Positions 4,734 through 45,607 of a stretch of DNA of 64,000 nt are shown here, piece by piece. The DNA is from a virus (Duplodnaviria; Heunggongvirae; Uroviricota; Caudoviricetes), in IMG/VR virus record IMGVR_UViG_2627854069_000003; one strand, given 5' to 3'. Positions within the stretch are counted from its first letter, which is position 1; each line of letters begins with the position of its first letter. The notes beneath the pieces are model-generated. The model saw only the letters and a program-made list of their open reading frames with translations. It was not told where the DNA came from and made no database searches. Both the position numbers and the translations under genes were made by a program.

Positions 4734-4778
4734 GGCGGCTATCGCCGCCACCGAGCTGTCGCCAGCGCGACGGCGTTA

Positions 4779-4975
4779 CTGCCGCCGTTCTTCTGAGTTC
4801 GTCGCTATTCCTGCGATGCAACCGCAATCCACCCCGACTGCACACGACCTGCGGTCACTTCGTGCGCCTCTGCACCCGGTCCCCCGCTGGGGGCTGCGGC
4901 TTTGACTGCGCTTGTTCCGTCCGTTTGGCTTGCGGTCTCTTACCGCAGGCGACGAACTCAGAAGAACGGCGGCAG
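4779..4975. repeat. 27-bp perfect inverted repeats (4779-4805 / 4949-4975) flanking a 143-bp GC-rich core with a nested 8-bp inverted repeat
   Basis: CTGCCGCCGTTCTTCTGAGTTCGTCGC and its exact reverse complement. Confidence 0.6.
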
Positions 4976-5061
4976 CAATGCCAGCGAGCACCATGCGACA
5001 TCCCGGGCAAGCATGGATTCAGGCTCGGAATCTTGAAGCCCGGCAGCAGTTGGAGGACACG

Positions 5062-5481
5062 ATGCAAGAATCATCCTTGGACATTGAGCAAATTTTGGGC
5101 GAAGTCATCTACCGATACACACGCTCGCAGGCGCTTTCGGATGGTGTTCTAGTGGACATCACGGAAACCGCGCGACAAGCCGGTTTCCGGGTGCCTGTTG
5201 CCATGACCGCGGCAGCGTGGAGTAAGGTCATTGCCTGGTCCGATGCCGATTCAGCGCGCCAGACGCACCAGGACGAGAGGGGGCGGCTTTGGGACGTAGT
5301 GTGGATGGGGTACATGGCGGCACGTCGGGTCAGCGCTGGTTGCCGGGTGCCATTTCAGCTTTACGTCGTGCCGCGTGGAGGGGCGGCGATACGCCCCAAG
5401 CTGATGACTTTGCACATGGTCATTGGCCCTGGTGATGAAGGCGAACCGGTCATCACCATCATGAACCCGAACGAAGACTGA
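5062..5481 (+). CDS. hypothetical protein
   Basis: ATG at 5062 preceded by GGAGG; 139 aa MQESSLDIEQILGEVIYRYTRSQALSDGVLVDITE... Confidence 0.5.
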   Translation: MQESSLDIEQILGEVIYRYTRSQALSDGVLVDITETARQAGFRVPVAMTAAAWSKVIAWSDADSARQTHQDERGRLWDVVWMGYMAARRVSAGCRVPFQLYVVPRGGAAIRPKLMTLHMVIGPGDEGEPVITIMNPNED

Positions 5482-5538
5482 ACCCTGCAGCCCGCCCGAT
5501 CAGGGCGGGCTGATGAAGCCAACTAAGGAGCTGACACT

Positions 5539-5721
5539 ATGAGCAACGCACCGGATGACATCGGCCCGGACATCAACCCCGCGACCGGCCTGCCGCTGAT
5601 TGACGACACCTACATCGACTTAGGCGGCAACCCATACGGCACCGATTCACACACGTGGCAGCCATCGTATAACCCAGGCCCCAGCTACGCGCCGCTACCG
5701 CCGACCTTCGACCCCTGGTGA
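5539..5721 (+). CDS. small Pro/Gly-rich hypothetical protein
   Basis: AAGGAG RBS 7 nt upstream of ATG; 60 aa. Confidence 0.4.
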   Translation: MSNAPDDIGPDINPATGLPLIDDTYIDLGGNPYGTDSHTWQPSYNPGPSYAPLPPTFDPW

Positions 5722-5739
5722 AGAGGCGCCAGCGCGCCT

Positions 5740-7596
5740 CTAGCGAGAGCGTGAGGCTACCGGTGCCGGAACCGGCACTGGTAGTTCTACGCCGTAATCC
5801 AGCTTCGCCAGACGCGCAGACATGTCAGCCAAGGTGAGCAACACCGTTTCGTCCTCGTAACCGTCCGCGACCTGGTTGTCCGACGACTCTTTATGGCCGC
5901 TGATGCAGCGCAGATTGACGCCAATTTTCCTGCCGTATGTCAGCAGCGTGTGCCGGAACGTGTGAGAGCCGCGTACCGCGTTTCCCTGCTCGTTAGTGAC
6001 GCCGTGTAGGCCGATGGTGCGCATGTAGTTCGCCACAAACTTTCCAGGCGCTGCGCCAGCATCACCGCTTGTCGGCGTCCACTGCGGAAATAGCCGCCGT
6101 GCTCCGCCACGCTTCGTTTGTTCGAGGTAGTCCGGTAGACCGAGCCGAACCAGTTCAGCATGCATCGGAATCGTACGCGGTTTGCCGGTCTTCACCGACT
6201 TGATGACGTCCGGGTCTGGGCTTTCGCCGGGCTCATTGGTCAACCGCAGCCACCAGATTCCGTCCTTGCTCCCCCAATCGCTCTGAGGGTTAATCTGGCA
6301 GATTTCTCGAACACGGGCGCCCGTGTACAGCTCTATCGCCAACAGCCAAAACTTATGCACCTGGGCAGGGCTGGCTACAATTTTCTTCATCCGGTCATTG
6401 AAGAAAATCAGGCTAATCTCGTCAGGCCGCAGCGCGCGCTGCTTGCGTTCGGTCGTCGTGCGTGACCCAAGATACGGGATATTCGTTGTCAGAGTTGTTG
6501 GGAACCCGACATCTTGCCAATCAGCAACGGCGCAGTCGATAAACGTGCGCAGTGACGCGAGATATGAACCTTCATAGGTCTTAAGCGACAGCGTTTCGCT
6601 CCACCCCTTGCTCGCCAAATCTCGGATGTTCTGACCGCTTTTCCGGCGTAGATCAGACCAGCGAGGCGGGAGTTTCTGGACGGTAAGCAGGAAGTCTTTG
6701 ACATGCGACTGACGCAGCTCGGTGATGGGCATGTCTCCCACCACTTCGAGGAAGGCGGGGAGAATGAATCGGTGCTTCTCGTTCATTGCCCGTTGAGCAG
6801 GCGGAAGATGTTCAAGGAACTCTTTGATAGCCGCAGATAGCATCATCACGTTCGCAACGCCGACGACCGCCCCAGATTCCCCCACCGGCCTTTTTAGCGG
6901 AGCGGCCGGGGTGGCAACGGGCCGGTCTTCGCCGTTATCGCGAGCCTGTACAACGCCAATGCCCGCCAGGTGCGCACGCACGAAAGCAAGCAGCAGCCTT
7001 CCTTCGTCCACTGTACCAATGAGCTCATCTGCGAGCCGGTATCCGTTCAGGTACAGCGTCTGATGCGTAACTTGCTGGAATGCACTGCAATCGCCCGTAG
7101 CCAAGGCTCGCCTCAACAGCCTCTCGGACTCGGAGTGGGCTGCCCGTGCCTCGCCCATTTCGAGCCCAGCTTGTTGGCCCACGGCGGCAGCCTCACGCCG
7201 CTGAATGTCTGCGATTTCGGTTGTGGCGAATACCGTTGAGAAGAACCGCTGCGCAACATCTGGGGTGACTTCGTTGAGGACTTCAAGGTCGTCCCATACA
7301 TGGAAGCCATTCTTGCTGAGCCGCTGCAACCCGTTGCGGGCCGAAGCAATCCGTTCTGTTGACTCGTGCGCCAGGCGGTCGCGTTCGCGGCAAGCCGTTC
7401 GGTAGTCCCCGCTGAGCTTTTCCTTGAACTCTCGTCTACCGATGATGTGCCGCACGTCTTCAGGCACGCCGCGACGAAAGAGGTACCCGGTACCGGTCCG
7501 GGTCTTGAACATGAATTGAGGCATACGGTCGTCCGTGGCCGTACCCCCTTGCTGCCTGTTGCCTTGTACCTGCTTTTGTACCTTCGTTTGTACCAT
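5740..7596 (-). CDS. tyrosine site-specific integrase (large, with N-terminal extension); alternative start at 7524
   Basis: C-terminal catalytic motifs ...GSHTFRHTLLTYGRKIGVNLRCISGHKE...Y; sits beside a tRNA-Ser 3' fragment. Confidence 0.85.
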   Translation of the reverse strand: MVQTKVQKQVQGNRQQGGTATDDRMPQFMFKTRTGTGYLFRRGVPEDVRHIIGRREFKEKLSGDYRTACRERDRLAHESTERIASARNGLQRLSKNGFHVWDDLEVLNEVTPDVAQRFFSTVFATTEIADIQRREAAAVGQQAGLEMGEARAAHSESERLLRRALATGDCSAFQQVTHQTLYLNGYRLADELIGTVDEGRLLLAFVRAHLAGIGVVQARDNGEDRPVATPAAPLKRPVGESGAVVGVANVMMLSAAIKEFLEHLPPAQRAMNEKHRFILPAFLEVVGDMPITELRQSHVKDFLLTVQKLPPRWSDLRRKSGQNIRDLASKGWSETLSLKTYEGSYLASLRTFIDCAVADWQDVGFPTTLTTNIPYLGSRTTTERKQRALRPDEISLIFFNDRMKKIVASPAQVHKFWLLAIELYTGARVREICQINPQSDWGSKDGIWWLRLTNEPGESPDPDVIKSVKTGKPRTIPMHAELVRLGLPDYLEQTKRGGARRLFPQWTPTSGDAGAAPGKFVANYMRTIGLHGVTNEQGNAVRGSHTFRHTLLTYGRKIGVNLRCISGHKESSDNQVADGYEDETVLLTLADMSARLAKLDYGVELPVPVPAPVASRSR

Positions 7597-7659: not shown

Positions 7660-7700
7660 TGGCGGAGAGAGGGGGATTCGAACCCCCGAGGACCATCTGA
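7660..7700 (-). other. 3' fragment of a tRNA-Ser gene (T-arm + acceptor 3' strand + CCA) = att-type direct repeat marking the junction between two integrated elements
   Basis: rc reads ...GGTCCTCGGGGGTTCGAATCCCCCTCTCTCCGCCA; no matching 5' acceptor strand GGAGAGA upstream, so not a complete tRNA. Confidence 0.6.
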
Positions 7701-8026
7701 AAATTAAGGGTTCGCGGGCAGTGCGATCCTAATTCCTGTCATTGTTCGCCATCCCGATCCCAGTCTTCGCCGCTCGAATACCCTCTTCCGCCCCAGTTCA
7801 AAGAACAGTAGCCTGAAGCAACGAACAAACCTTCGATGGGTTTCGAACCTGCGACACCATACGGGCTCGTGAGTTCATCAATGCTGTAGATGCCTACAGC
7901 CATGTGAAGGCAGAAAAACTCGCACCCATTTTGCGAGCGATGGGGCGCACCCTGTTGTTCCCAGCCTTCGGGTCTGTAGTCCTGCTGCGCTCGCGCGGAG
8001 GCAACCATAGCAGCACTGCCTATCGA

Positions 8027-8575
8027 TCACTTTTGCTTCGAGTCACGCTTGACGCGAAGCTTCCCATACTGGTCGTCTACCTCCTTCTTAGCAGACTCCT
8101 TCGCGATTTGATCTTGAACTATCTGGGCTGGAAACAGGGTCATAAACACAATCACCACTTGCCACATAGTTAGCACCGAGAGAATTACAAACGAGATTCC
8201 TCGCGCCACTTCTACGTGCGGCCGAACGGCAGGAACTTCTTTGATAAGAGGAGCACAAATCCCAAGCAGTAACAGCAGCCCAAGAATGATAGTGGAATGG
8301 ACTGCGGGGGTGAGCAGCACCCCCAAATTCCCGTTACTCCCGCCGTTTTTATTACCGCCCCTAAACGACACCTTCAAACGCTCCGGATAAATTATCGCCA
8401 ACCACGCACCAATAACCGCAAAGATAATAGAAGCCGTCGTCCGAAGAGCCTCATATAATGGCCATTGCTTTTCAAATGGAATATGACGCCCATAATAATA
8501 CCCCGCCACACAGACGATTATCGCAAATAAAATTGCGACAACGCGAAATATCATTGCGCCAATTCTATAAATCAT
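8027..8575 (-). CDS. small integral membrane protein (4 predicted TM helices), second gene of a low-GC two-gene operon
   Basis: 182 aa; hydrophobic segments about 7-27, 46-63, 85-110, 124-148; start overlaps upstream stop (ATGA); local GC about 45-50% versus about 66% around it. Confidence 0.6.
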   Translation of the reverse strand: MIYRIGAMIFRVVAILFAIIVCVAGYYYGRHIPFEKQWPLYEALRTTASIIFAVIGAWLAIIYPERLKVSFRGGNKNGGSNGNLGVLLTPAVHSTIILGLLLLLGICAPLIKEVPAVRPHVEVARGISFVILSVLTMWQVVIVFMTLFPAQIVQDQIAKESAKKEVDDQYGKLRVKRDSKQK

Positions 8576-9666
8576 TCCAATATCGCCAAAATACGACGCC
8601 TATGATCGTTCAATGACCCCGCCAGCACTTCCAAATCAACAATCTCTTCATTTCGTCGCTCAACATAAATTTCAAAACTATCGCTCGCCAGTGACCGCCG
8701 CAACCAGTATGCCTTGCTCCCCTCGCCCTGGAATTTGAATCCGATGTCGTCCCACATACGCTCATCGTCATTCTCATCCTCTCTTGCAAAGATTTCCCGG
8801 AGCTCGTCTATCGTCGGCTGATACTCCATTTCGACAAAAACCGATTTATCCATAACAACCGGTTGATCGTCGGGCCGACGTCCACGAATGAAGCTAACGA
8901 GCCCCTCCCACGTGGTACGTTGCACTCGATTTTCTACAGTCAAGTGCCCACGCCGCATCACACGCCTTATTCGGCCAACATTATCCAATATGTACTTCCT
9001 CTGACCATCTTTCACAAAAGCAAGCGTCTTGAATTTAGGATATTTCACACCATCCAAATTCACGCCATCTTCTGCGTACCCAACAACTACATCTTCGCCA
9101 TTTTCGTTTTGCCCGCCGACCACGTACCTAGCCTCCCTAGCAAGGAAACGCTCTACGTAATCCCTCATTCCTTGCTGACCGGATACGTTATGGATAAACC
9201 TGATACTCGCAATGAGGCTTCTTTGCGGTATCACCCAGAAATACGTGGCATATCCCGGGATGCTATTTTCAGCAATTTCGTTTATATGAACTTCAGGAGC
9301 TCCAACTGGCGAATCACGCGATATAGATGCAACTCCGCCTTCGTGGGCTGGCACTTCGTTCCAAGTTGCAAACACCCATTCGTTACCACGCGCCACAATC
9401 CCGGCTAGATAAATTGGGAGTCTTTCATCATTTGCCCCGCCGTCATCAAATAACTTCGTAAGTGACAAAGGCATCCCTGCGGACCAATCGCGTAATTGCT
9501 CAAACGTGTCCGAAATTCCGCCAAAGCTCGCTTGCCGACTGCCCCACGGGTAGTAGCCGCATTGGTCGATCTTGTAAAAAGTAATTTTTACTGTTTCATT
9601 AGGCACAATCTTTCCCCCGGTAACTTTGACGGAGTATGCAGGAAAAGACCATGCCTGTGCATCCAT
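8572..9666 (-). CDS. hypothetical soluble protein (364 aa), first gene of a putative SOS-regulated two-gene module
   Basis: Long ORF in an AT-rich segment; no motif I can assign (weak Rx5H RVMRRGH); LexA-type box 13 bp upstream of its ATG. Confidence 0.6.
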   Translation of the reverse strand: MDAQAWSFPAYSVKVTGGKIVPNETVKITFYKIDQCGYYPWGSRQASFGGISDTFEQLRDWSAGMPLSLTKLFDDGGANDERLPIYLAGIVARGNEWVFATWNEVPAHEGGVASISRDSPVGAPEVHINEIAENSIPGYATYFWVIPQRSLIASIRFIHNVSGQQGMRDYVERFLAREARYVVGGQNENGEDVVVGYAEDGVNLDGVKYPKFKTLAFVKDGQRKYILDNVGRIRRVMRRGHLTVENRVQRTTWEGLVSFIRGRRPDDQPVVMDKSVFVEMEYQPTIDELREIFAREDENDDERMWDDIGFKFQGEGSKAYWLRRSLASDSFEIYVERRNEEIVDLEVLAGSLNDHRRRILAILE

Positions 9667-9676
9667 GCCACTATGA

Positions 9677-9696
9677 TGCTGTATTTTTATACAGCA
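9677..9696. promoter_or_regulatory. LexA (SOS) box TGCTGTATTTTTATACAGCA (CTGT-N8-ACAG)
   Basis: Perfect palindromic match to the E. coli-type SOS box consensus TACTGTATATATATACAGTA, immediately upstream of the 8572..9666 gene. Confidence 0.6.
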
Positions 9697-9708
9697 TTTA
9701 ATGCGACG

Positions 9709-37408: not shown

Positions 37409-37666
37409 ATGCACTCAATCGAATTCACCAAACAAGCCGCCCAAGCCCTCAAGGCAATGCCGCGCAACATTTCGGCGACGATTCGGGCAAAGATCGATGC
37501 ACTGGCTGCCGATCCCTACGCACCGAATCCGAACGCAAAGAAGCTGGCAGGCCAACCCGGCTACCGGCTCCGAGTTGGCGATTGGCGTGTGTTGTACGAA
37601 ATCGAAGATGGCCGCGTCGTGATCGTTGTGCTGGCCGTCAAACCCCGTGGAGGTGCCTACAAATGA
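37409..37666 (+). CDS. RelE/ParE-family toxin (toxin-upstream, HigB-like arrangement)
   Basis: 85 aa ...GYRLRVGDWRVLYEIEDGRVVIVVLAVKPRG. Confidence 0.85.
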   Translation: MHSIEFTKQAAQALKAMPRNISATIRAKIDALAADPYAPNPNAKKLAGQPGYRLRVGDWRVLYEIEDGRVVIVVLAVKPRGGAYK

Positions 37667-38058
37667 CCGAAGTTCAATTTATCGAGCAGGACGGCCACCG
37701 GGCCTTTGCCGTGGTCCCCATCGAACTGTGGGACCGCGTGAAGGACCTGATCGAAGATCTCGAAGATGAAGCGCTCTACGCGCAGGCCAAGGCAAGCGAC
37801 GACGGCCGCCGCATCCCGGCCGCCGTGCTCGATGCCGAACTGGCGGGCGATCACCCTGTTCGTGCCTGGCGCAATCATCTGCGCATGACGCAAGACGCAC
37901 TCGCGACAGCGGCTGGGATCAGCAAGCCGTATCTCAGCCAGATCGAAACCCGTCAGCGCGTCGGCACTACTGACGTGCTATCCAAAATCGCAAGCGCGCT
38001 TTCTGTACCCGTCGACGACTTGATCGAACCACCGGCCGGCCAGCCCGAGCAGCCGTGA
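37663..38058 (+). CDS. antitoxin with C-terminal XRE-type HTH
   Basis: ATGA overlap with toxin stop; HTH LRMTQDALATAAGISKPYLSQIETRQR. Confidence 0.75.
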   Translation: MTEVQFIEQDGHRAFAVVPIELWDRVKDLIEDLEDEALYAQAKASDDGRRIPAAVLDAELAGDHPVRAWRNHLRMTQDALATAAGISKPYLSQIETRQRVGTTDVLSKIASALSVPVDDLIEPPAGQPEQP

Positions 38059-38571: not shown

Positions 38572-39054
38572 TGTGGCTTCTCCCTTATGTGCTGCGGCGA
38601 CCGAATCGCTTCGGATCGTAGTAGGCGCTGCATGCGGCTTGACTAGGTCGCGCTTATCGTCGGTCAGCGTAGTGCAGTCGCATAAATGCGATCATCGACA
38701 CGACTGCGCGCACCCAGCGCGGGCGGCGACGAAACGCCATAACAGCCATATGAACTCCGGGCGCGTAAACGAAAAAACCCGCGAGGCCTTCACCTAGCGG
38801 GATGTCCAGCATCATTACCGATAGCCACATTGCAACGTCCGCCGCGATCATGGGGCCGTATGGTCTGCAAAGTCAGAGCCAGTTATGGGCCCGGTTCCGT
38901 TGCATCGGCTGTACGCCCCCTTTGATTAGCATGTCTCGATGCACTACTCTTTCTCAGAGACCAATCGCTTTTCGCACAATAACTGCTCACGACTCTACAT
39001 GTTGCGCACCATACATCTGCGCTGGCGTCTCGGCTAGTACACGGGGAAGCTGAA

Positions 39055-39390
39055 ATGCGAATCAAATACTGTGGTGCAATCGCGCTACTGGTATCAATGA
39101 CAGCAGCGCCACAACAGGCACCCGCCGACAGAGCAATCGATAAATCCGATAGCTTTCAAACGCACTTCAACTGGACTGGGAAAAACGATAATTCTGGCTT
39201 TAAGGGCTCCGAGTTTGGCAGCACAAAAGTACCGGCCCAAGCACCTAGCCTAGCGGGAGATGGCAGACCCACAATTGTTTGCAATGATGCCGCGCTGAAG
39301 AATCGAATCTCGGATTTGGAGAAGTACGTGCAACTTCTCCAAGCAAAAATCACGATCCTCGAAAGCTCCACGAAAGAAAATGGCAAGTGA
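39055..39390 (+). CDS. secreted hypothetical protein (signal peptide)
   Basis: MRIKYCGAIALLVSMTAAPQQAPA signal; AT-rich moron. Confidence 0.5.
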   Translation: MRIKYCGAIALLVSMTAAPQQAPADRAIDKSDSFQTHFNWTGKNDNSGFKGSEFGSTKVPAQAPSLAGDGRPTIVCNDAALKNRISDLEKYVQLLQAKITILESSTKENGK

Positions 39391-39790
39391 CTCCTCGCAA
39401 GCCTTGGCAGAAGTCAACAAAGCGATCGCGTCGCAAGCCGCGGCGGTCGACGCTTCAAGTGGCGTTGCAGCCCAAGGCTCTCAACTAGTCGTCCAAGAAA
39501 CCAGTTGGTGGTCTGTCGAAAACGCAATGACGATTAGCGCCGTAGTGCTCGCGTTCGGCTTGGTGACAATCGGAATCGCGGCGTGGTTGATACTCCGACG
39601 CATACCGCACAATGCTGTCCTGCGCGTTCTGGGAACTGTGCTCATCCTTGTGTTTGCCGTCTTCCTAGTCGTCGCTGGGTACAGCGATAAGCAGATCGCG
39701 TCGGTTCTTGGCCTCTTGGGTACGGTCGCCGGCTACTTGCTCGGGAAAAGTGAGAACTCCAATCCGCCCGAGCGCAAAGATCAAACGTAA
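39380..39790 (+). CDS. membrane protein (about 3 TM)
   Basis: Overlaps upstream gene by 11 nt; TM segments AVVLAFGLVTIGIAAWLIL and VLGTVLILVFAVFLVVAGY. Confidence 0.5.
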   Translation: MASDSSQALAEVNKAIASQAAAVDASSGVAAQGSQLVVQETSWWSVENAMTISAVVLAFGLVTIGIAAWLILRRIPHNAVLRVLGTVLILVFAVFLVVAGYSDKQIASVLGLLGTVAGYLLGKSENSNPPERKDQT

Positions 39791-39916
39791 TTTGAAACAT
39801 ATGCCACCGAGGCAAACAAAAAGCCCCGCTCGGCGAACCGGCGGGGCTTCTCGCATGCAACTTGTGCAGTATGGCGGAAATCATATACTGCTGTAACAGG
39901 AGCGTCAAGTAGGTAT

Positions 39917-40477
39917 GTGGCACGCCCGCGCGGTTCAGTGGAGAACTGGGGAATGGCGGCGAACGCGAAGGTCAGCAACGAAAAGAAGAACCTCAACCGG
40001 CTGGCAGGCGAGTTTCTGGTCGCCTCACGCCTGACTCAGCGTGGCTACATGGTGGCACTGCAATGGGGTACGACTATCGGCTACGACGTTCTCGTGTTCG
40101 ACAAGAGCGGCAACTCGGCCTTCCTTGAAATCAAATCGTCCGCGTCAAACTCTCGCCGCTGGCTGCTCCAACAGAAATACGCGAACCCGCGCGCGGACAA
40201 GATACCAGCGAACCGCCGATTTGTTTGCTGTGTAGATCTGGCAATCAAGGGCAAAGAGCCGGATGTCTACGTGTTCCCCGCAACGGTCGTAGCGGATGGG
40301 TTGCACTACTTCTTCGCCAGCAAATTCCCAAACAGCCCCAGTTATCACTTGTCACTCGACTTCAAGCCGCAATACCGCACGAAGGAGGACGGGGTGTTGA
40401 CGGTCGGGCAACACATCGAGGCCGAGACATTCTTGGAAAACTATGCCGTGATCGGAATCGAGACCGTCACGGGATAG
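39917..40477 (+). CDS. PD-(D/E)XK / Hjc-like restriction-endonuclease-fold protein
   Basis: E...D...E-x-K pattern: LAGEFLVASRL..., GYDVLVFDK..., AFLEIKSS. Confidence 0.5.
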   Translation: MARPRGSVENWGMAANAKVSNEKKNLNRLAGEFLVASRLTQRGYMVALQWGTTIGYDVLVFDKSGNSAFLEIKSSASNSRRWLLQQKYANPRADKIPANRRFVCCVDLAIKGKEPDVYVFPATVVADGLHYFFASKFPNSPSYHLSLDFKPQYRTKEDGVLTVGQHIEAETFLENYAVIGIETVTG

Positions 40478-40589
40478 AACGCCACCGGACAACCGGATGC
40501 CCTGACATTTCACTCGACTCACTCGCGATTCGCTGTCGGTCCCGATAGTCACGAACGCCGATATCGACCATGAACGGTCAATCGACTTC

Positions 40590-40811
40590 TTGATGGGAAT
40601 CGTTGACATACGAGTGGCCGATACCTCGACAGGCCGAGCTATGTATCTACTGTATTGCGATGAGACGAACTTTCAGAAGCTCTCGGGTGACTTCTTCGTC
40701 TACGGAGGAATCATTATTGATGGCGCGAAGGCAGGCAAGTACCGTGAGAAATACTTGGCCTTGCGCGACTTCTTGCAGGCTCAAGGCATCGAGATTGAGC
40801 AGGTCTTGTAG
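40590..40811 (+). CDS. small hypothetical protein (possibly a truncated DUF3800-like N-terminus)
   Basis: MYLLYCDETNF... motif; only 73 aa. Confidence 0.3.
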   Translation: MMGIVDIRVADTSTGRAMYLLYCDETNFQKLSGDFFVYGGIIIDGAKAGKYREKYLALRDFLQAQGIEIEQVL

Positions 40812-41188
40812 ATCAAATATGGGTATCCCCGCACGCATAGATCGCAAGGCGGCATGGCCTTCGCGCCTCGCAGCCCTCTCCGAGAACGTCACGCCGTGGC
40901 GATACAACGGCAACGTTCTGGCTACGGATCTTTGACTTTGAGTGACTCCAATGGGGTGGATCAAATGTCGTTTGTGGATCGATCTTCGCCGCTCGGAAGT
41001 CTAACAGGGGTCGGAACCTTCGCACGAAGACTGCGGCCGGAAGCGGCCATTAATGTTCCTCCCCGACGACGCGGTGGGTGTCCGCCCTGAGACGCATAGC
41101 GGACATTTACGAAGTGTGGTGGAGATTCATGGTAGTGCCGTGTTGGCCGATGTATGCTATTGGTCCACGGATTCACGCTCAAACAACA

Positions 41189-43207
41189 ATGATTACCGAT
41201 CGCGACATCGAAGCTTTTATCGAATGCGCAGACAAAGCGTCTCAATCGCCGCTGGAGCTGAATGGCGAAGCCTGTGACGATATCCAGGCGCGTGTACATG
41301 CAACCGTTTGTCCTGGCGAACGTTCTATGAATGACATGCAGGCTCTAGGACGTACATTATTTCGCCGCGCCCAACTCCAACCCGGGCTTCATGCCTACGC
41401 GACTTATGCTCGGCATCTAACGCGCTTCACATCGAGCGAAAAGACCTTTTGTGACTTCAGCGAAATTGACCGTTGGCGAGAGGCAATTCAATATCTAGAT
41501 CTTCTTCAGCGCCTGCAAGGTTCGTTGTTTGATCCAAATCGCACCGTTGACATGGAACGCGATATCGCAGTTACCTCCGCCATTGCGCGACTGCAGCAGG
41601 AAGGATATCGGTTTTCACCGAAAGATGAGCGAATCGATTTTATGGAGGGCGAGCTGGACCGTTGCGCACAGGACCTATTCGATGATTTCCGCAAAGTGGA
41701 TGGATTTAGAATATCCTATCTTCTGTTACGTCATCTTCAGAAAAACAATCGATTTAAAGGCGGGCGCTATCTAACAGGACGTATCTCTCGACCACTTGCC
41801 GAGGCAAACCCAAAACCCGCCCCGCCCCTTGGCTATCTGCTGAACCTTGCTGCTGCCAATCTTTCCGTGGAGCGCGTACAGAACTGCACCGATGAGGCAG
41901 TGGGAAAAATCTTTGCGAAAGCGGCCGATATAGTTGCGGCACTTGATGTCGAAACCTACAATCCGTATGCACATATGTACCGATCGCATGATCGCCTACC
42001 CATTTATCTTCGGGAGATGTTCATCGCGGATCACGCGCTAGCGTTTCGGCAGATCAGCCCAACGGACGCCTTAGAGATGATGAGCGGTCTCTTTGACTGG
42101 GTCAATAACGATACCGTTCGTTCGAAGATGGGATGGTCCCTTGAAGATCTATTCGCATTGATGCGATGGCTCTTTGCCTATGTCTCGCCTGAAGCGATTA
42201 ATGCCACGCTCAGTAGAGAAATCTTGGGGCGCTCTGGAATTCCCGAGGATCGATTGCAAAAATTGTTGGAATGCATATCGCACAATCCGTCGAGTATAAA
42301 TAGTGAATATCGCACGCCCGATGCGACGAAGGCGAACATGAGCACAAAACCATTGATTGCCACCTCAGACGGCCGCTATTTCCTGTTTTCGCTTTCCATA
42401 AGTGCTATCGGATTCTACGAGGTTGCTGCCGCGACATTGCGGAGTGTATTCGGATCACGCGCAGATCAAGACCTTGGGGATGCAATTGAACCCTACGTTG
42501 CAAGAATGTTCGAGAGTCGCGGAATCAAACCCTCTGTGCTGTCTAGGAAGTACAGTATGAACGGAGTAAGAGGTGAATGCGATCTCATCATCGAAGCAGA
42601 TCGAGCGATTCTGCTCATCGAGTTAAAGAAGAAATCAATGACGCGTGCGGCACAAGCCGGCGATTCATACGGCGGTTTTTTTGATCTCTTCGGAGGAGTG
42701 TTTAGTGCGCAGGAACAATTGGGGCAACATGAGCTTTTGCTGCGGCAATACGGCTACCTTGAATTTGAGAATGGAACGCAGGTAAGGCTGAACAATCGCA
42801 GTGTTGAGCGATTGGCGGTGACGCTTCTAGACTGGGGCGGAACACAGGACGGCATGGTACTCAGGAGCATTGCGCCGGTCTTGATCGGATCATCGCTTAA
42901 CTACCCGAATGCGACCGAGGATCAAATCAAACAGCTTGCGAAGGTAAACAGAACGTTAAGTGTGCTCGGCATGCAACAGGTCGAGTTGCTGAAACTTGGG
43001 GTTGAGCCTCGGGATTTGCATACAAATTGGTCGTTCATGAGCGTACCGCAACTCATGGCGCTTTTGAACGGCGTGCACAATGCAGACACCTTCTATAACG
43101 CATTGCGGAACGTCCGATCAGTCCACACTGGCTCGCTGGACTTCTACCAGGAGCTTGCGTGGTGGCCCGACACCGCGCGCGCCGCGTGGACAAGAAAGAG
43201 CATGTGA
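41189..43207 (+). CDS. large hypothetical protein with C-terminal PD-(D/E)XK nuclease motif (Shedu/DUF4263-like?) - candidate defence protein
   Basis: 672 aa; GECDLIIEADRAILLIELKKK (D-x13-E-x-K); AT-rich relative to the prophage backbone. Confidence 0.6.
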   Translation: MITDRDIEAFIECADKASQSPLELNGEACDDIQARVHATVCPGERSMNDMQALGRTLFRRAQLQPGLHAYATYARHLTRFTSSEKTFCDFSEIDRWREAIQYLDLLQRLQGSLFDPNRTVDMERDIAVTSAIARLQQEGYRFSPKDERIDFMEGELDRCAQDLFDDFRKVDGFRISYLLLRHLQKNNRFKGGRYLTGRISRPLAEANPKPAPPLGYLLNLAAANLSVERVQNCTDEAVGKIFAKAADIVAALDVETYNPYAHMYRSHDRLPIYLREMFIADHALAFRQISPTDALEMMSGLFDWVNNDTVRSKMGWSLEDLFALMRWLFAYVSPEAINATLSREILGRSGIPEDRLQKLLECISHNPSSINSEYRTPDATKANMSTKPLIATSDGRYFLFSLSISAIGFYEVAAATLRSVFGSRADQDLGDAIEPYVARMFESRGIKPSVLSRKYSMNGVRGECDLIIEADRAILLIELKKKSMTRAAQAGDSYGGFFDLFGGVFSAQEQLGQHELLLRQYGYLEFENGTQVRLNNRSVERLAVTLLDWGGTQDGMVLRSIAPVLIGSSLNYPNATEDQIKQLAKVNRTLSVLGMQQVELLKLGVEPRDLHTNWSFMSVPQLMALLNGVHNADTFYNALRNVRSVHTGSLDFYQELAWWPDTARAAWTRKSM

Positions 43208-43476
43208 AGATGCCATCTGCAAGCGCTGGAACCCTACGCGACAACATCTTTGAATGACCGCGTGACGGGACGATGGTCCGCACACGATGCGAAAACCGAG
43301 TGGGCCAGCGATTGGCACAGAGACCTTAGAAAGTGAGTAGTGAAGCGGTCGACAGATGCATGAAAAATAGCAACGGTCACGCGGATTGTTCCTTTTGTCC
43401 GTCCGGTCTCGCACACTTATCAAATTACGTCGAGAGCGTGCCGATAGGCTCTTTTGGGTCGGTAACGGTCGAAACA

Positions 43477-44846
43477 GAGCCTGTCAGAATTTTAGTGTAC
43501 CGAGGTCATGAGACGATAACGGAAATTACATCCTATGACCGAAGCAACCGTGACCAAGAAGAGCAAGAACCCGAAAGCGTCGAAGCTGTTTCCCGATGAG
43601 CTGATCGATCAATTGCTTGCCCAGGTTCAGGGCAAGGATGCCGAGTCGATCCTGGGTGAATCGGGGCTGGCCGGTCAGCTCAAGAAGCAACTGGCCGAAC
43701 GCATGCTCGCGGCCGAGTTGAGCCATCATCTGGAGGCCGAGACCGAGCAAGGCAAGGCTGGCAATTACCGCAACGGCACGAGCCCCAAGACGGTCCTCAC
43801 GCCCAACGGCGAACTGAAGCTAGATATTCCACGCGACCGGCAGGCGACGTTCGAGCCGCAATTGGTGGGCAAGTATCAACGCCGGCTGCCCGGTTTCGAC
43901 GATCATGTCATCAGCATGTATGCGCGCGGCATGAGCGTTCGCGAGATTCAGGGCCATCTGCTGGAACTGTACGGACTGCAGGTGTCGCCCGACCTGATTT
44001 CGACGGTCACCGACGAGGTGCTGGCCGACGTCGAGCAGTGGCAGCAACGCCCGCTCGAGGCTATGTATCCGATCGTGTACTTCGACGCTCTGCGGCTAAA
44101 GATTCGCGACGAAGGCACGGTCAAGAACAAGGCGGTGTATCTGGCGCTAGGCATCCGTGCCGACGGCCGCAAGGAAGTGCTGGGTCTGTGGATCGAGCAA
44201 ACCGAAGGCGCCAAGTTCTGGCTGAAGGTCTTCAACGAGCTGAAGAATCGCGGCTTGCACGACATCCTGATCGCGGTGGTCGACGGCTTGCGCGGCTTCC
44301 CCGAAGCGATCGAGGCGGTCTATCCGGCCGCCCAAATCCAGACCTGCATCGTGCATCTGATCCGCAATTCGCTGAATCTGGCGAGTTGGAAGGACCGCAA
44401 GCCGCTGGCCGCCGCGATCAAGCCGATCTACCAGGCCGCCACGGCCGAGGCGGCGGCAGGGGCACTGGATGCCTTTGCGCAAAGCGAGTGGGGCCGCAAA
44501 TTCCCTACCGTCGCGGCCATGTGGCAGCGCCAATGGGAACAGGTGATTCCCTTCTTCGCCTATCCGCCCGAGGTGCGTCGAATCGTATATACGACAAACG
44601 CCATCGAGAGCATGCACATGCAGTTGCGCAAGATCGTCAAGAATCGCGGCCACTTCCCAAGCGACGAAGCCGCCAGCAAATTGCTGTATCTGGCCTTGCG
44701 CAACATCGAAAAGGACTGGAAGATGCCGCCTATCACTTGGCGGCAAGCCATCAATCAGTTCGCCATTCTGTTCGGCGAGCGATTCACCGCCGCCATCAGC
44801 TGAGATTTTTAACCGACCTCGGCACACGAAATTCCTGACACGTCCT
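43477..44846 (+). mobile_element. IS256-family insertion sequence with 8-bp target-site duplication
   Basis: IRs GAGCCTGTCAGAATTTTAGTG / rc GAGGACGTGTCAGGAATTTCGTG; flanking direct repeat (T)CGAAACA. Confidence 0.8.
43535..44803 (+). CDS. IS256-family transposase
   Basis: 422 aa with DDE motifs of the IS256 family (…YLALGIRADG…, …DGLRGFPEAIE…). Confidence 0.9.
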   Translation: MTEATVTKKSKNPKASKLFPDELIDQLLAQVQGKDAESILGESGLAGQLKKQLAERMLAAELSHHLEAETEQGKAGNYRNGTSPKTVLTPNGELKLDIPRDRQATFEPQLVGKYQRRLPGFDDHVISMYARGMSVREIQGHLLELYGLQVSPDLISTVTDEVLADVEQWQQRPLEAMYPIVYFDALRLKIRDEGTVKNKAVYLALGIRADGRKEVLGLWIEQTEGAKFWLKVFNELKNRGLHDILIAVVDGLRGFPEAIEAVYPAAQIQTCIVHLIRNSLNLASWKDRKPLAAAIKPIYQAATAEAAAGALDAFAQSEWGRKFPTVAAMWQRQWEQVIPFFAYPPEVRRIVYTTNAIESMHMQLRKIVKNRGHFPSDEAASKLLYLALRNIEKDWKMPPITWRQAINQFAILFGERFTAAIS

Positions 44847-44947
44847 CGAAACACGATTCACTACTCTTGAAGTGACGCCGACCGCAGCGCCCTCCTGCGC
44901 AACACTGGCACTGAAACGTCGCATCGGCGGCCCACCGAAAGCGCGTT

Positions 44948-45607
44948 TCACGCGGATTCCGCTATACCGCTTATCAGCCCTGTCTCTTCAAAGTATGCCG
45001 TAAGCCGCCCCACCGCTAGCGCCTCCACTTCTCGCAAGCGCTGCTCAATCTTTTGATATGCGCGCTTGTACGTCATATGGCTCGCGCCGAAGCTGCGCTC
45101 AAGATCGCGGAAACTGATCGTCGCCCTCGCGTGATTCGCATACAGCCGAGCGAGCAGGCAGTCGAGCGCGAGGTTCGAAATGCCGGGGAAAGACGGTTCC
45201 AGCCAACGCGAAAGTCTCTGGATCGCCTCAGCGCGCTCGGCGAGGAAGTAGAAGCGTTTCACGCCGTCGGCGTCCCGCGTATCTCCCATCTGCCCGAAAC
45301 GCGCGATCACCGCCCATTTCTCGACGTCCATCAGCTTCGTGCGGACCGCGCTCACCACGGCGGCGCATTGCGCCCGCACTTCCGCCATGTCGAGCCCACT
45401 GAAATTCACGGTCGATTCGGCGGCCGAACCGGTCAGTTGCCCGAGCCACTTGCGCTGATCTTCCGACAGTTCGGGCTCGAGCTCCATTGCCCGAATGAGC
45501 GCCGTTCGGAGCACGTTCTTCGCGCGTGGCTCGCTCGCCAGAATCAGAAACGACACGTGCAGCGCTTGGCGAGTGCTGTCGAAAATGAAATCCATTTGTT
45601 GTCTCAT
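44948..45607 (-). CDS. hypothetical phage early protein
   Basis: 219 aa. Confidence 0.45.
   Translation of the reverse strand: MRQQMDFIFDSTRQALHVSFLILASEPRAKNVLRTALIRAMELEPELSEDQRKWLGQLTGSAAESTVNFSGLDMAEVRAQCAAVVSAVRTKLMDVEKWAVIARFGQMGDTRDADGVKRFYFLAERAEAIQRLSRWLEPSFPGISNLALDCLLARLYANHARATISFRDLERSFGASHMTYKRAYQKIEQRLREVEALAVGRLTAYFEETGLISGIAESA

Follow-up and report, generated by a model that had tools for sequence, protein, structure and literature searches.

The 64,000-nucleotide stretch of viral DNA analyzed here (the window) carries a long gene of lower GC content than its surroundings, and the question it raises is what kind of nuclease this gene encodes and what such a nuclease does in a prophage. 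The window, a Burkholderia thailandensis prophage, matches Burkholderia phage phiBt-TXDOH at 100% identity; no att repeats were found, and the prophage borders were placed by comparison with the phiBt-TXDOH record. The complete nuclease gene spans positions 41189..43207 on the plus strand (stop codon 43205-43207) and encodes 672 aa. The longest open reading frame at this site starts upstream at a GTG (41078..43207, 709 aa). The ATG at 41189, which yields the 672-aa protein, is also the start in more distant homologues (MIT.../MIK...), and the ORF list together with this shared start codon confirms the frame given in the original prediction. The protein is 100% identical to WP_144410571.1, a hypothetical protein of B. 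thailandensis, in a database comparison. The GenBank record of phiBt-TXDOH calls the same gene at only 410 aa, which we attribute to how the record was annotated, the DNA being 100% identical. The gene is intact and under purifying selection (dN/dS of 0.20 against the B. ubonensis orthologue). Its GC content is 0.512, compared with a window mean of 0.604 (SD 0.036, same-size windows), and ranks 12th lowest among 620 windows. The term "AT-rich" thus stands here for 51% GC. No clear Shine-Dalgarno sequence precedes the ATG at 41189, and neither a promoter/terminator scan nor a repeat search around the gene gave anything above shuffled controls.

The gene sits in a variable cargo block of the phage lineage (38092..44853), a few kb from cos, between a ParE/HTH pair (37409-38058) and a gp77 homologue on the minus strand (44948-45607). 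In phi1026b and phiE125 these conserved flanks are ~6.6 kb apart, compared with ~11.7 kb here, and enclose different genes; vB_PR2b has yet another gene set at the same site. A single-gene insertion, as first proposed, is ruled out, because the low-GC stretch (~38750-43500) lies within a ~6.8-kb variable block (38.1-44.9 kb) that holds several small ORFs, a DUF3800 remnant and an IS256-family element. The nuclease gene is on the strand opposite to the flanking replication and packaging modules. Upstream of it, the ORF at 40590..40811 (plus strand) had been taken for a broken DUF3800-like fragment, and it indeed matches only positions 1-46 of 149 of the Pfam profile PF12686 (E 3.8e-4, 21.6 bits for a cutoff of 21), with no full-length match to that profile. 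Close downstream, two ORFs of greater length in other frames (40603-40935 and 40854-41090) have no Pfam match. The IS256-family insertion sequence (43477..44845, plus strand; Transposase_mut, E 9.9e-124) begins 270 bp downstream of the nuclease gene. The 8-bp target-site duplication on either side of it, TCGAAACA, was read from the sequence at 43469-43476 and 44846-44853. The same element occurs at a different site in phages vB_RY3 and vB_RY5. The neighbouring 186-aa and 364-aa proteins had no match in the PDB. At this hotspot, sister phages carry a PADLOC PDC-S49-like gene (E 3.5e-20) or a protein whose match to Schlafen/AlbA_2 is weak (E 4.9e-5, just under the Pfam cut-off). This comparison of sister-phage cargo supports the view that the gene is prophage cargo in a reshuffled, defence-type hotspot.

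Four regions can be distinguished in the protein, all encoded on the plus strand. Residues 1-308 (41189..42112) form a mostly helical, family-specific N-terminal region that we presume to be a sensor or regulatory region. Residues 309-424 (42113..42460) form a "pre-core" module, recognized by hhalign and an NCBIfam HMM as common to the anti-phage protein GapS1, with a conserved K387-P388 "KPLI" segment and an FYE..LR helix. The PD-(D/E)XK (restriction-endonuclease-fold) core, delimited by conserved residues and the AlphaFold (AF2) fold, covers residues 425-545 (42461..42823). Finally, residues 546-672 (42824..43204) comprise a conserved DWGGTQD segment and, after it, a C-terminal domain of helices, again family-specific; D548, G550, Q553, D554 and Y653 are near-invariant in the alignment of family members, and the AF2 model places helices over residues 550-671.

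The predicted catalytic residues of the core are E434 (42488-42490), D465 (42581-42583), E478 (42620-42622), K480 (42626-42628) and Q510 (42716-42718), all on the plus strand. The motif string GECDLIIEADRAILLIELKKK (residues 462-482, plus strand, 42572..42634) has the spacing D465-x12-E478-x-K480 in the translation, which corrects the D-x13-E-x-K given earlier. In a 42-sequence alignment with a mean column identity of 26%, D465, E478, K480 and Q510 never vary, and E434 is conserved to 90% or more. The pattern D-x12-E-x-K recurs in 158 of 160 family proteins, and its extended form GECD-x12-E-x-K in 97 of the 160; judged from these alignments, the conservation of the motif exceeds chance. The AF2 model (pLDDT 76, pTM 0.73) has a restriction-endonuclease-like alpha/beta fold. 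The modelled fold and the acidic residue followed by (D/E)-x-K both place the protein in the PD-(D/E)XK superfamily, with a canonical FokI-like core (E434, D465, E478-x-K480, Q510). What had been called a C-terminal PD-(D/E)XK nuclease thus stands as regards fold and invariant residues; it is not strictly C-terminal, as the core occupies residues ~425-545 of 672 and ~125 residues lie beyond it.

The core had been likened to Shedu/DUF4263-type nucleases. Shedu (SduA, DUF4263) resembles the present protein in being a single gene with an N-terminal regulatory region and a PD-(D/E)XK nuclease, and in a Shedu-type scheme the N-terminal domain would sense free DNA ends and gate the C-terminal nuclease within a tetramer. 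The profile tests contradict this assignment. Pfam, which contains DUF4263, had no match to the 672-aa protein at E≤0.1. Among the 42 family members, none matched DUF4263 at E≤0.01 and none matched the PADLOC Shedu model, and the structure was not nearer to SduA than to other PD-(D/E)XK enzymes. We therefore reject membership of Shedu on the DUF4263/SduA profile tests and regard a Shedu-type mechanism as highly improbable; the relatives that emerged instead are GapS1, by profile, and Upx, by structure.

GapS1 is a single-protein anti-phage system described from Vibrio GMT islands and E. coli prophages (bioRxiv 10.1101/2023.03.28.534373). Its sequence was reached from the first ~380 nt of the homologues synthesized in that study: one fragment led to a PGAP-annotated gapS1 gene, and searching complete E. 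coli genomes with the other ~380-nt fragment returned no match. The E. coli homologue used here is the one cloned for the phage assays of the GAPS1 paper (bioRxiv 10.1101/2023.03.28.534373). The NCBIfam GapS1 HMM (NF047931) matched residues 307-488 with 32.1 bits (E 5.4e-8; profile positions 128-320 of 455), short of its curated cutoff of 320 bits, and matched only 5 of the 42 family members at E≤0.01. Aligning the family against GapS1 with hhalign gave a probability of 93.4% and an E-value of 2.5e-7 over 194 columns (residues 309-512), pairing E434 with E283, D465 with D315, E478-K480 with D328-K330 and Q510 with Q361 of the E. coli homologue. The pre-core segment (residues 300-424) on its own aligned in the same register (hhalign E 3.1e-5), and hhalign of residues 513-672 or 546-672 against GapS1 returned nothing. 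A reciprocal HMM search matched 30 of 30 GapS1 proteins, always in the same region. Pairwise BLASTP against GapS1 was not significant, and the GapS1 profile matched no solved structure in the PDB. Judged by profile comparison, the closest sequence relative of the 672-aa protein is GapS1; because the score is 32 rather than 320 bits and BLASTP is not significant, the relationship is remote and concerns only ~30% of the protein.

Within this region the likeness is specific. Both proteins have a homologous module of ~200 residues, consisting of a pre-core with a conserved K-P motif and a PD-(D/E)XK core, with identical acidic-x12-(D/E)-x-K spacing and an aligned downstream Gln. In the E. coli homologue, D315 and K330 have a 15-residue spacing, the same as that between D313 and K328 of the Vibrio protein. 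The GAPS1 study lists D313A and K328A mutant plasmids and reports escape mutants in the T7 capsid gene (gene 10); a phage capsid protein activates GAPS1, and dormancy follows (bioRxiv 10.1101/2023.03.28.534373). GapS1, too, is a single gene on mobile elements, and the E. coli homologue is likewise prophage cargo. The two differ in length (~505-530 aa for GapS1 compared with 672 aa) and at the third catalytic position, where GapS1 has D-x-K and the 672-aa protein E-x-K. Residues 1-308 show no detectable similarity to GapS1, and neither they nor residues 513-672 have a detected counterpart there.

Structural comparison points to a second relative. Searching the PDB by sequence, with the protein or with the family profile, gave nothing significant. 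[quoted passage not shown] In the model the similarity extends beyond the nuclease core, and so the closest solved structure to the predicted fold, with the non-catalytic N-terminal region included, is that of the validated defence protein Upx. The family profile had no match to the 9wuf sequence at E≤10. PADLOC-DB, which we take to include the Gao-2020 Upx model, had no match for the 672-aa protein and gave no Upx profile match. [quoted passage not shown] The 672-aa protein departs from this dual-nuclease, three-domain arrangement in having a single core, at 425-545, with an additional helical domain behind it. It also differs from FokI-type enzymes: sequence identity to their cleavage domains (FokI 2fok, BspD6I 2p14, 2ewf) is only 11-13%, and it has no recognizable DNA-recognition domain or partner methyltransferase. 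The YraN/UPF0102 family gives weak HMM matches over a ~60-residue core (E 1.8e-5 to 1e-2, in 10 of the 42 members) at scores far under the family cutoffs; YraN proteins differ in having ~120 aa and only the core. One plasmid homologue is annotated as "YraN family protein".

The 672-aa protein belongs to an unnamed family of ~690-aa proteins. An exhaustive HMMER search (E≤1e-3) found 1,195 clusters at 50% identity, 763 of them at E≤1e-30, nearly all full length, compared with the 13 proteins (single query) or 12 (42-sequence profile) retrieved by word-indexed searches. The family has no Pfam, NCBIfam or PADLOC model, and its database names are all "hypothetical protein". Scanning GTDB genomes with a degenerate DNA pattern for GECD-x12-E-x-KKK and validating the matches by hmmsearch identified 65 true family members among 76 matches, from at least 10 phyla. 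Genomic settings are varied. In one IMG/VR prophage a family member lies exactly between gpA and the portal gene gpQ, the old/tin defence hotspot of P2 and a documented anti-phage locus (PMC9122126). Others are found on plasmids (17 records, of which 12 are conjugative), on a metagenomic contig of IncP type, in an integrase island alongside EACC1 and a caspase, and in a mutS-adjacent island alongside PAAR/Tox-REase-5/DUF5677/Ymh genes. One member has a weak N-terminal TIR-like extension. A survey of 183 neighbouring genes, which is descriptive, has no background control and used a crude ORF caller, revealed no common partner gene; type I R-M, SMODS+SAVED, AAA_21/AAA_15, HEPN, HipA, integrases and transposases are among these neighbours. 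The family is horizontally mobile, with members standing alone in variable cargo sites (the Stanholtvirus hotspot of the window, P2 gpA-gpQ, plasmids and integrase islands).

How, then, should the gene be read? Given the distant kinship to two proven single-protein systems, GapS1 and Upx, it is most likely a phage-defence gene, and not Shedu. One competing view is that the protein serves the mobile element and not host immunity, through competition between elements, addiction or maintenance, or DNA processing in the phage cycle. Carriage on phages, conjugative plasmids and islands would fit such a role, as would the weak resemblance to small nucleases of the YraN type, themselves of unknown role, and the fact that the phage still forms plaques with the nuclease gene on board. 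Against it, sister phages of the same genus lack the gene and have unrelated cargo at the same site, from which we infer that it is dispensable for the phage cycle; its strand, opposite to the replication and packaging modules, its low-GC cargo block and the documented anti-phage character of the P2 gpA-gpQ site also speak against it. We consider a role in the service of the element unlikely.

Rather unlikely as well is the view that the protein works alone as a restriction-type endonuclease (type IV or type IIS-like), its N-terminal region binding DNA directly (modified or otherwise non-self DNA, for example) and its FokI-like domain cutting without a protein trigger. No recognized DNA-binding domain reaches significance, no methyltransferase is adjacent (a DNA methylase is only 1 of the 183 neighbours elsewhere), and in both of its specific relatives, GapS1 and Upx, activation comes from phage proteins. 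The gene could also be pictured as a non-functional leftover, in decay, of a reshuffled hotspot, given the adjoining DUF3800 fragment and IS256 insertion, the several frameshifted homologues in other genomes and the 410-aa GenBank call. This picture is scarcely credible for a full-length frame that is co-linear with homologues across phyla, has all its catalytic residues intact and evolves at the low dN/dS given above, and the short call reflects annotation; we therefore reject a decayed pseudogene.

The best reading, in our analysis, is a candidate trigger-activated, single-protein defence nuclease: a stand-alone, prophage-borne sensor-nuclease that probably shields the lysogen from superinfecting phages or from other DNA that invades it. 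By analogy with GapS1 and Upx, the helical N-terminal region (~420 residues) and the helical domain at the C-terminus would keep the nuclease inactive until a protein or structure made by a phage binds to it and sets it free. The released nuclease would then cut DNA, and infection would stall as the infected cell stops growing or dies. More tentatively, we suggest that the family of ~1,200 clusters could be a widespread, unrecognized single-protein anti-phage system which, with GapS1 and part of Upx, derives from one ancestral module of helical sensor and FokI-like nuclease, the N- and C-terminal additions tuning what is sensed in each lineage. If such a common module exists, the protein may act as a dimer with an arrangement like the elongated, two-nuclease one of Upx.

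Should the family be a defence system, annotation at present is overlooking a widespread defence gene altogether (~1,200 clusters in at least 10 phyla, on phages, plasmids and islands). GapS1 and Upx, so far treated as unrelated, would be joined by a common sensor-nuclease module, and this link, if true, would aid the search for what such proteins sense. Because phages like phiBt-TXDOH are being explored against B. pseudomallei, an exclusion nuclease carried by the prophage would bear on host range and on how phage cocktails are designed.

The prophage matches Burkholderia phage phiBt-TXDOH (OK095358.1, genus Stanholtvirus) with 100% identity; that phage was recovered as plaques on B. pseudomallei Bp82. 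Comparison with the phage record places it from position 7660 (the attP/tRNA-Ser end of that record) through the end of the window. The longest frame of the nuclease gene runs from 41078 (GTG) to 43207, and the ATG at 41189 gives a protein of 672 aa that is identical to WP_144410571.1, a 'hypothetical protein' of B. thailandensis. Because more distant homologues begin at the equivalent Met (MIT.../MIK...), 41189-43207 is the right gene extent, as originally predicted. OK095358.1 annotates only the 410-aa C-terminal part (BtTXDOH_14, window 41975-43207, record 5219-6451), together with BtTXDOH_13, a small overlapping ORF read in a different frame (window 41529-41774, record 4773-5018). Despite the shorter CDS, the 672-aa frame is open over its whole length and conserved, and since the DNA is identical to the window, the 410-aa call is an annotation error.

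We built an AlphaFold2 model on 12 homologues (pLDDT 76, pTM 0.73). In the model the N-terminal region, up to residue ~420, is mostly helical; an alpha/beta core (residues ~425-545) and a helical C-terminal domain (residues 550-672) follow. By translation, GECDLIIEADRAILLIELKKK at 42572..42634 corresponds to residues 462-482 and gives the motif D465-x12-E478-x-K480, not the D-x13-E-x-K spacing first reported. The PD-(D/E)XK core had been correctly recognized; with ~190 residues beyond the motif, the domain is not strictly C-terminal. Across 42 aligned sequences, whose columns average 26% identity, D465, E478, K480 and Q510 never vary, and the conservation of E434 is 90% or higher. Of 160 family proteins, 158 show the D-x12-E-x-K spacing. 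Given the invariant catalytic residues and a dN/dS of 0.20 against the B. ubonensis orthologue, the product is an intact, constrained PD-(D/E)XK nuclease whose activity is predicted. NCBIfam antiphage_GapS1 matched residues 307-488 below threshold (E 5.4e-8, 32 bits versus a cutoff of 320), and YraN-type PD-(D/E)XK proteins gave weak NCBIfam matches over residues 425-489.

GAPS1 is a single-protein system whose activation leads to dormancy and whose T7 escapers carry changes in capsid gene 10; the paper also lists D313A and K328A mutant plasmids, and an E. coli homologue, EJP5250929.1, was cloned for its phage assays (bioRxiv 10.1101/2023.03.28.534373). A complete E. coli genome yielded the sequence of this homologue, which PGAP annotates as gapS1. 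D313 and K328 of GAPS1 are 15 residues apart, as are D315 and K330 of the E. coli homologue. Pairwise BLASTP between the nuclease and the homologue was not significant. Profile-profile comparison of the family with GapS1 gave a probability of 93.4% (E 2.5e-7, 194 columns), aligning nuclease residues 309-512 with GapS1 residues 149-363 and pairing E434 with E283, D465 with D315, E478-x-K480 with D328-x-K330, and Q510 with Q361. The pre-core segment alone (300-424) matched in the same register (E 3.1e-5), and for residues 1-308 and 513-672 this comparison found nothing in GapS1. The HMM searches were reciprocal and co-linear: the family HMM matched 30 of 30 GapS1 proteins; in the other direction, 53 of 160 family proteins were matched by the GapS1 HMM at a per-comparison E<1e-3. 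The two are therefore, judged by sequence, distinct families with a common module of ~200 residues. The E. coli GapS1 homologue is prophage cargo (E. coli Ecol_AZ147, locus L099 3001-4527); it directly follows the integrase and CI repressor of a P2-like prophage, at the prophage's end.

Upx is a 1,272-aa monomer of three domains with a canonical FokI-like core at its extreme C-terminus (D1161, E1176, K1178); its trigger is the phage terminase according to one study and gp16 according to another (PMC13099982, PMC13601566). The family shows no sequence-level signal to Upx (cryo-EM structure 9wuf). Upx is the closest structural analogue of the modelled nuclease and possibly a remote relative, and not a member of the same family.

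The nuclease gene belongs to a large unnamed family. A word-indexed search with the nuclease returned only 13 proteins, mostly from Burkholderia and Paraburkholderia. When 1.84 billion cluster representatives were searched exhaustively with a profile, 1,195 matched at E<=1e-3 (763 at E<=1e-30), nearly all over their full length; the median length is 693 aa. We also ran a degenerate DNA pattern for GECD-x12-E-x-KKK on GTDB contigs (one genome per species), and 65 of the 76 places found encode true family members. These derive from Alpha-, Beta-, Gamma- and Deltaproteobacteria, Campylobacterota, Bacteroidota, Cyanobacteria, Acidobacteriota, Nitrospirota, Spirochaetota, Bacillota, Myxococcota and Binatota, and from one Methanobrevibacter assembly. 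None of 42 family members had a meaningful Pfam match or a convincing match to PADLOC models, and the database names encountered were 'hypothetical protein' and, once, 'YraN family protein'. One member, P0054 (988 aa, JGI metagenome), has an N-terminal extension of ~350 residues that begins FYSWQ... and is weakly TIR-like (Pfam CAP12-PCTIR_TIR, E 0.0048; PADLOC TIR effector, E 7.8e-4). In some metagenome-derived genomes (L011-L013, L026, L069, L088 and L098) the member is split into two adjacent ORFs by frameshifts or assembly errors, which suggests occasional decay of the gene.

Family members occur in several mobile settings. In one P2-like prophage (L015) the family gene has replication gene A on one side and portal gene Q on the other; in L022 it lies at Q-P and in L016 beside gene A. 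Rousset et al. (PMC9122126) describe the gpA-gpQ site as the old/tin defence hotspot. Seventeen plasmid records also carry members, and 12 of these plasmids are conjugative. Further members come from a metagenomic contig of IncP type, from an island that is bounded by an integrase and also holds EACC1 plus a caspase, and from a mutS-adjacent island with PAAR, Tox-REase-5, DUF5677 and Ymh genes. The 183 immediate neighbours at ~70 loci, a descriptive survey without background control, include integrases, transposases, a relaxase, type I R-M subunits, SMODS+SAVED, AAA_21/AAA_15, HEPN and HipA. No Pfam family recurred among them more than four times per batch of ~92, so the family has no conserved partner.

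In this phage, the gene sits in a variable block (the hotspot) a few kb from cos. One flank of the block is a toxin-antitoxin-like pair (37409-38058), in which an HTH_3 protein comes after a ParE/RelE-type toxin (Pfam ParE_toxin, 3.4e-12); the other is a gp77 homologue (44948-45607, minus strand). The pair is conserved at the hotspot edge in phi1026b, phiE125 and relatives, and sister phages carry different cargo between the same flanks. For instance, phi1026b carries gp79 and the 464-aa gp78 (L100 1496-2890), which is weakly Schlafen/AlbA_2-like (E 4.9e-5; 24.3 bits, just under the Pfam cut-off of 25.3). Phage vB_PR2b carries a homologue of a 186-aa ORF and a 577-aa protein (L101 2145-3878) matching the PADLOC candidate PDC-S49 (E 3.5e-20). 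Both gp78 and the 577-aa protein are candidate defence genes. The phiBt-TXDOH cargo comprises several small ORFs, an N-terminal DUF3800 remnant (the broken neighbour proposed earlier), the nuclease gene and an intact IS256-family element (43477-44845; transposase 43535-44803). The terminal inverted repeats of this element are imperfect, and an 8-bp target-site duplication, TCGAAACA, flanks it at 43469-43476 and 44846-44853. A ~94%-identical copy occupies a different place in vB_RY3 and vB_RY5, and thus the element moves between Burkholderia phages. The 186-aa ORF (39917-40477) contains a D...E-x-K-like stretch, YDVLVFDKSGNSAFLEIKSS, and weakly matches NOV_C (E 0.0024) and PADLOC PDC-S36 (E 0.0014). 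Its ~92%-identical copy lies in the same hotspot of vB_PR2b and vB_E253, upstream of a PDC-S49-like gene. This ORF is possibly another small cargo gene with a nuclease-like product.

The GC content of the nuclease gene is 51.2% versus a window mean of 60.4% (SD 3.6%), the 12th lowest of 620 same-size windows. The gene is AT-rich in this relative sense, and the single-gene insertion is not upheld, as the low-GC stretch (~38750 to 43500) includes other small ORFs. At its start, two small overlapping plus-strand ORFs (39055-39790) encode a 111-aa product with a signal-peptide-like N-terminus and heptad-like C-terminus, and a 136-aa product with predicted membrane helices. Neither has a family match, and they could form a membrane-associated exclusion pair. 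With 49% GC, the lowest value in the window, a second low-GC stretch (7660-9700) directly adjoins the att end on the prophage side and is probably another cargo site. It holds two minus-strand ORFs, one of 182 aa encoding a multi-pass membrane protein (8027-8575) and one of 364 aa (8572-9666) without a match in a PDB sequence search. Just outside this left border of the prophage lies a 618-aa tyrosine-recombinase-like ORF (5740-7596), suggesting that another integrative element is arranged in tandem at the same tRNA-Ser site; the window itself showed no tRNA gene.

The nuclease fold, its conservation, homology and context fit a sensor-nuclease that acts alone, moves horizontally and shares its functional class with GapS1 and Upx; gating, trigger, substrate and phenotype are inferred. 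The large non-catalytic region would gate the FokI-like nuclease until a phage-derived trigger shows up, and the triggered nuclease would arrest or kill the infected cell. There is a small chance that the nuclease instead serves the mobile element itself, and it is rather improbable that it is a directly DNA-sensing type IV/IIS-like enzyme. Membership in Shedu, the label of the original prediction, is contradicted by the tests, with no Pfam or PADLOC family matching the protein, and is very hard to sustain. Decay of this gene is equally implausible, being contradicted by the intact frame and purifying selection. The original observation stands with minor amendments, and the broader idea of a defence nuclease in a reshuffled hotspot holds up. 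As a putative sensor-nuclease, the gene is a good candidate for testing, and a conceptually unsurprising one.
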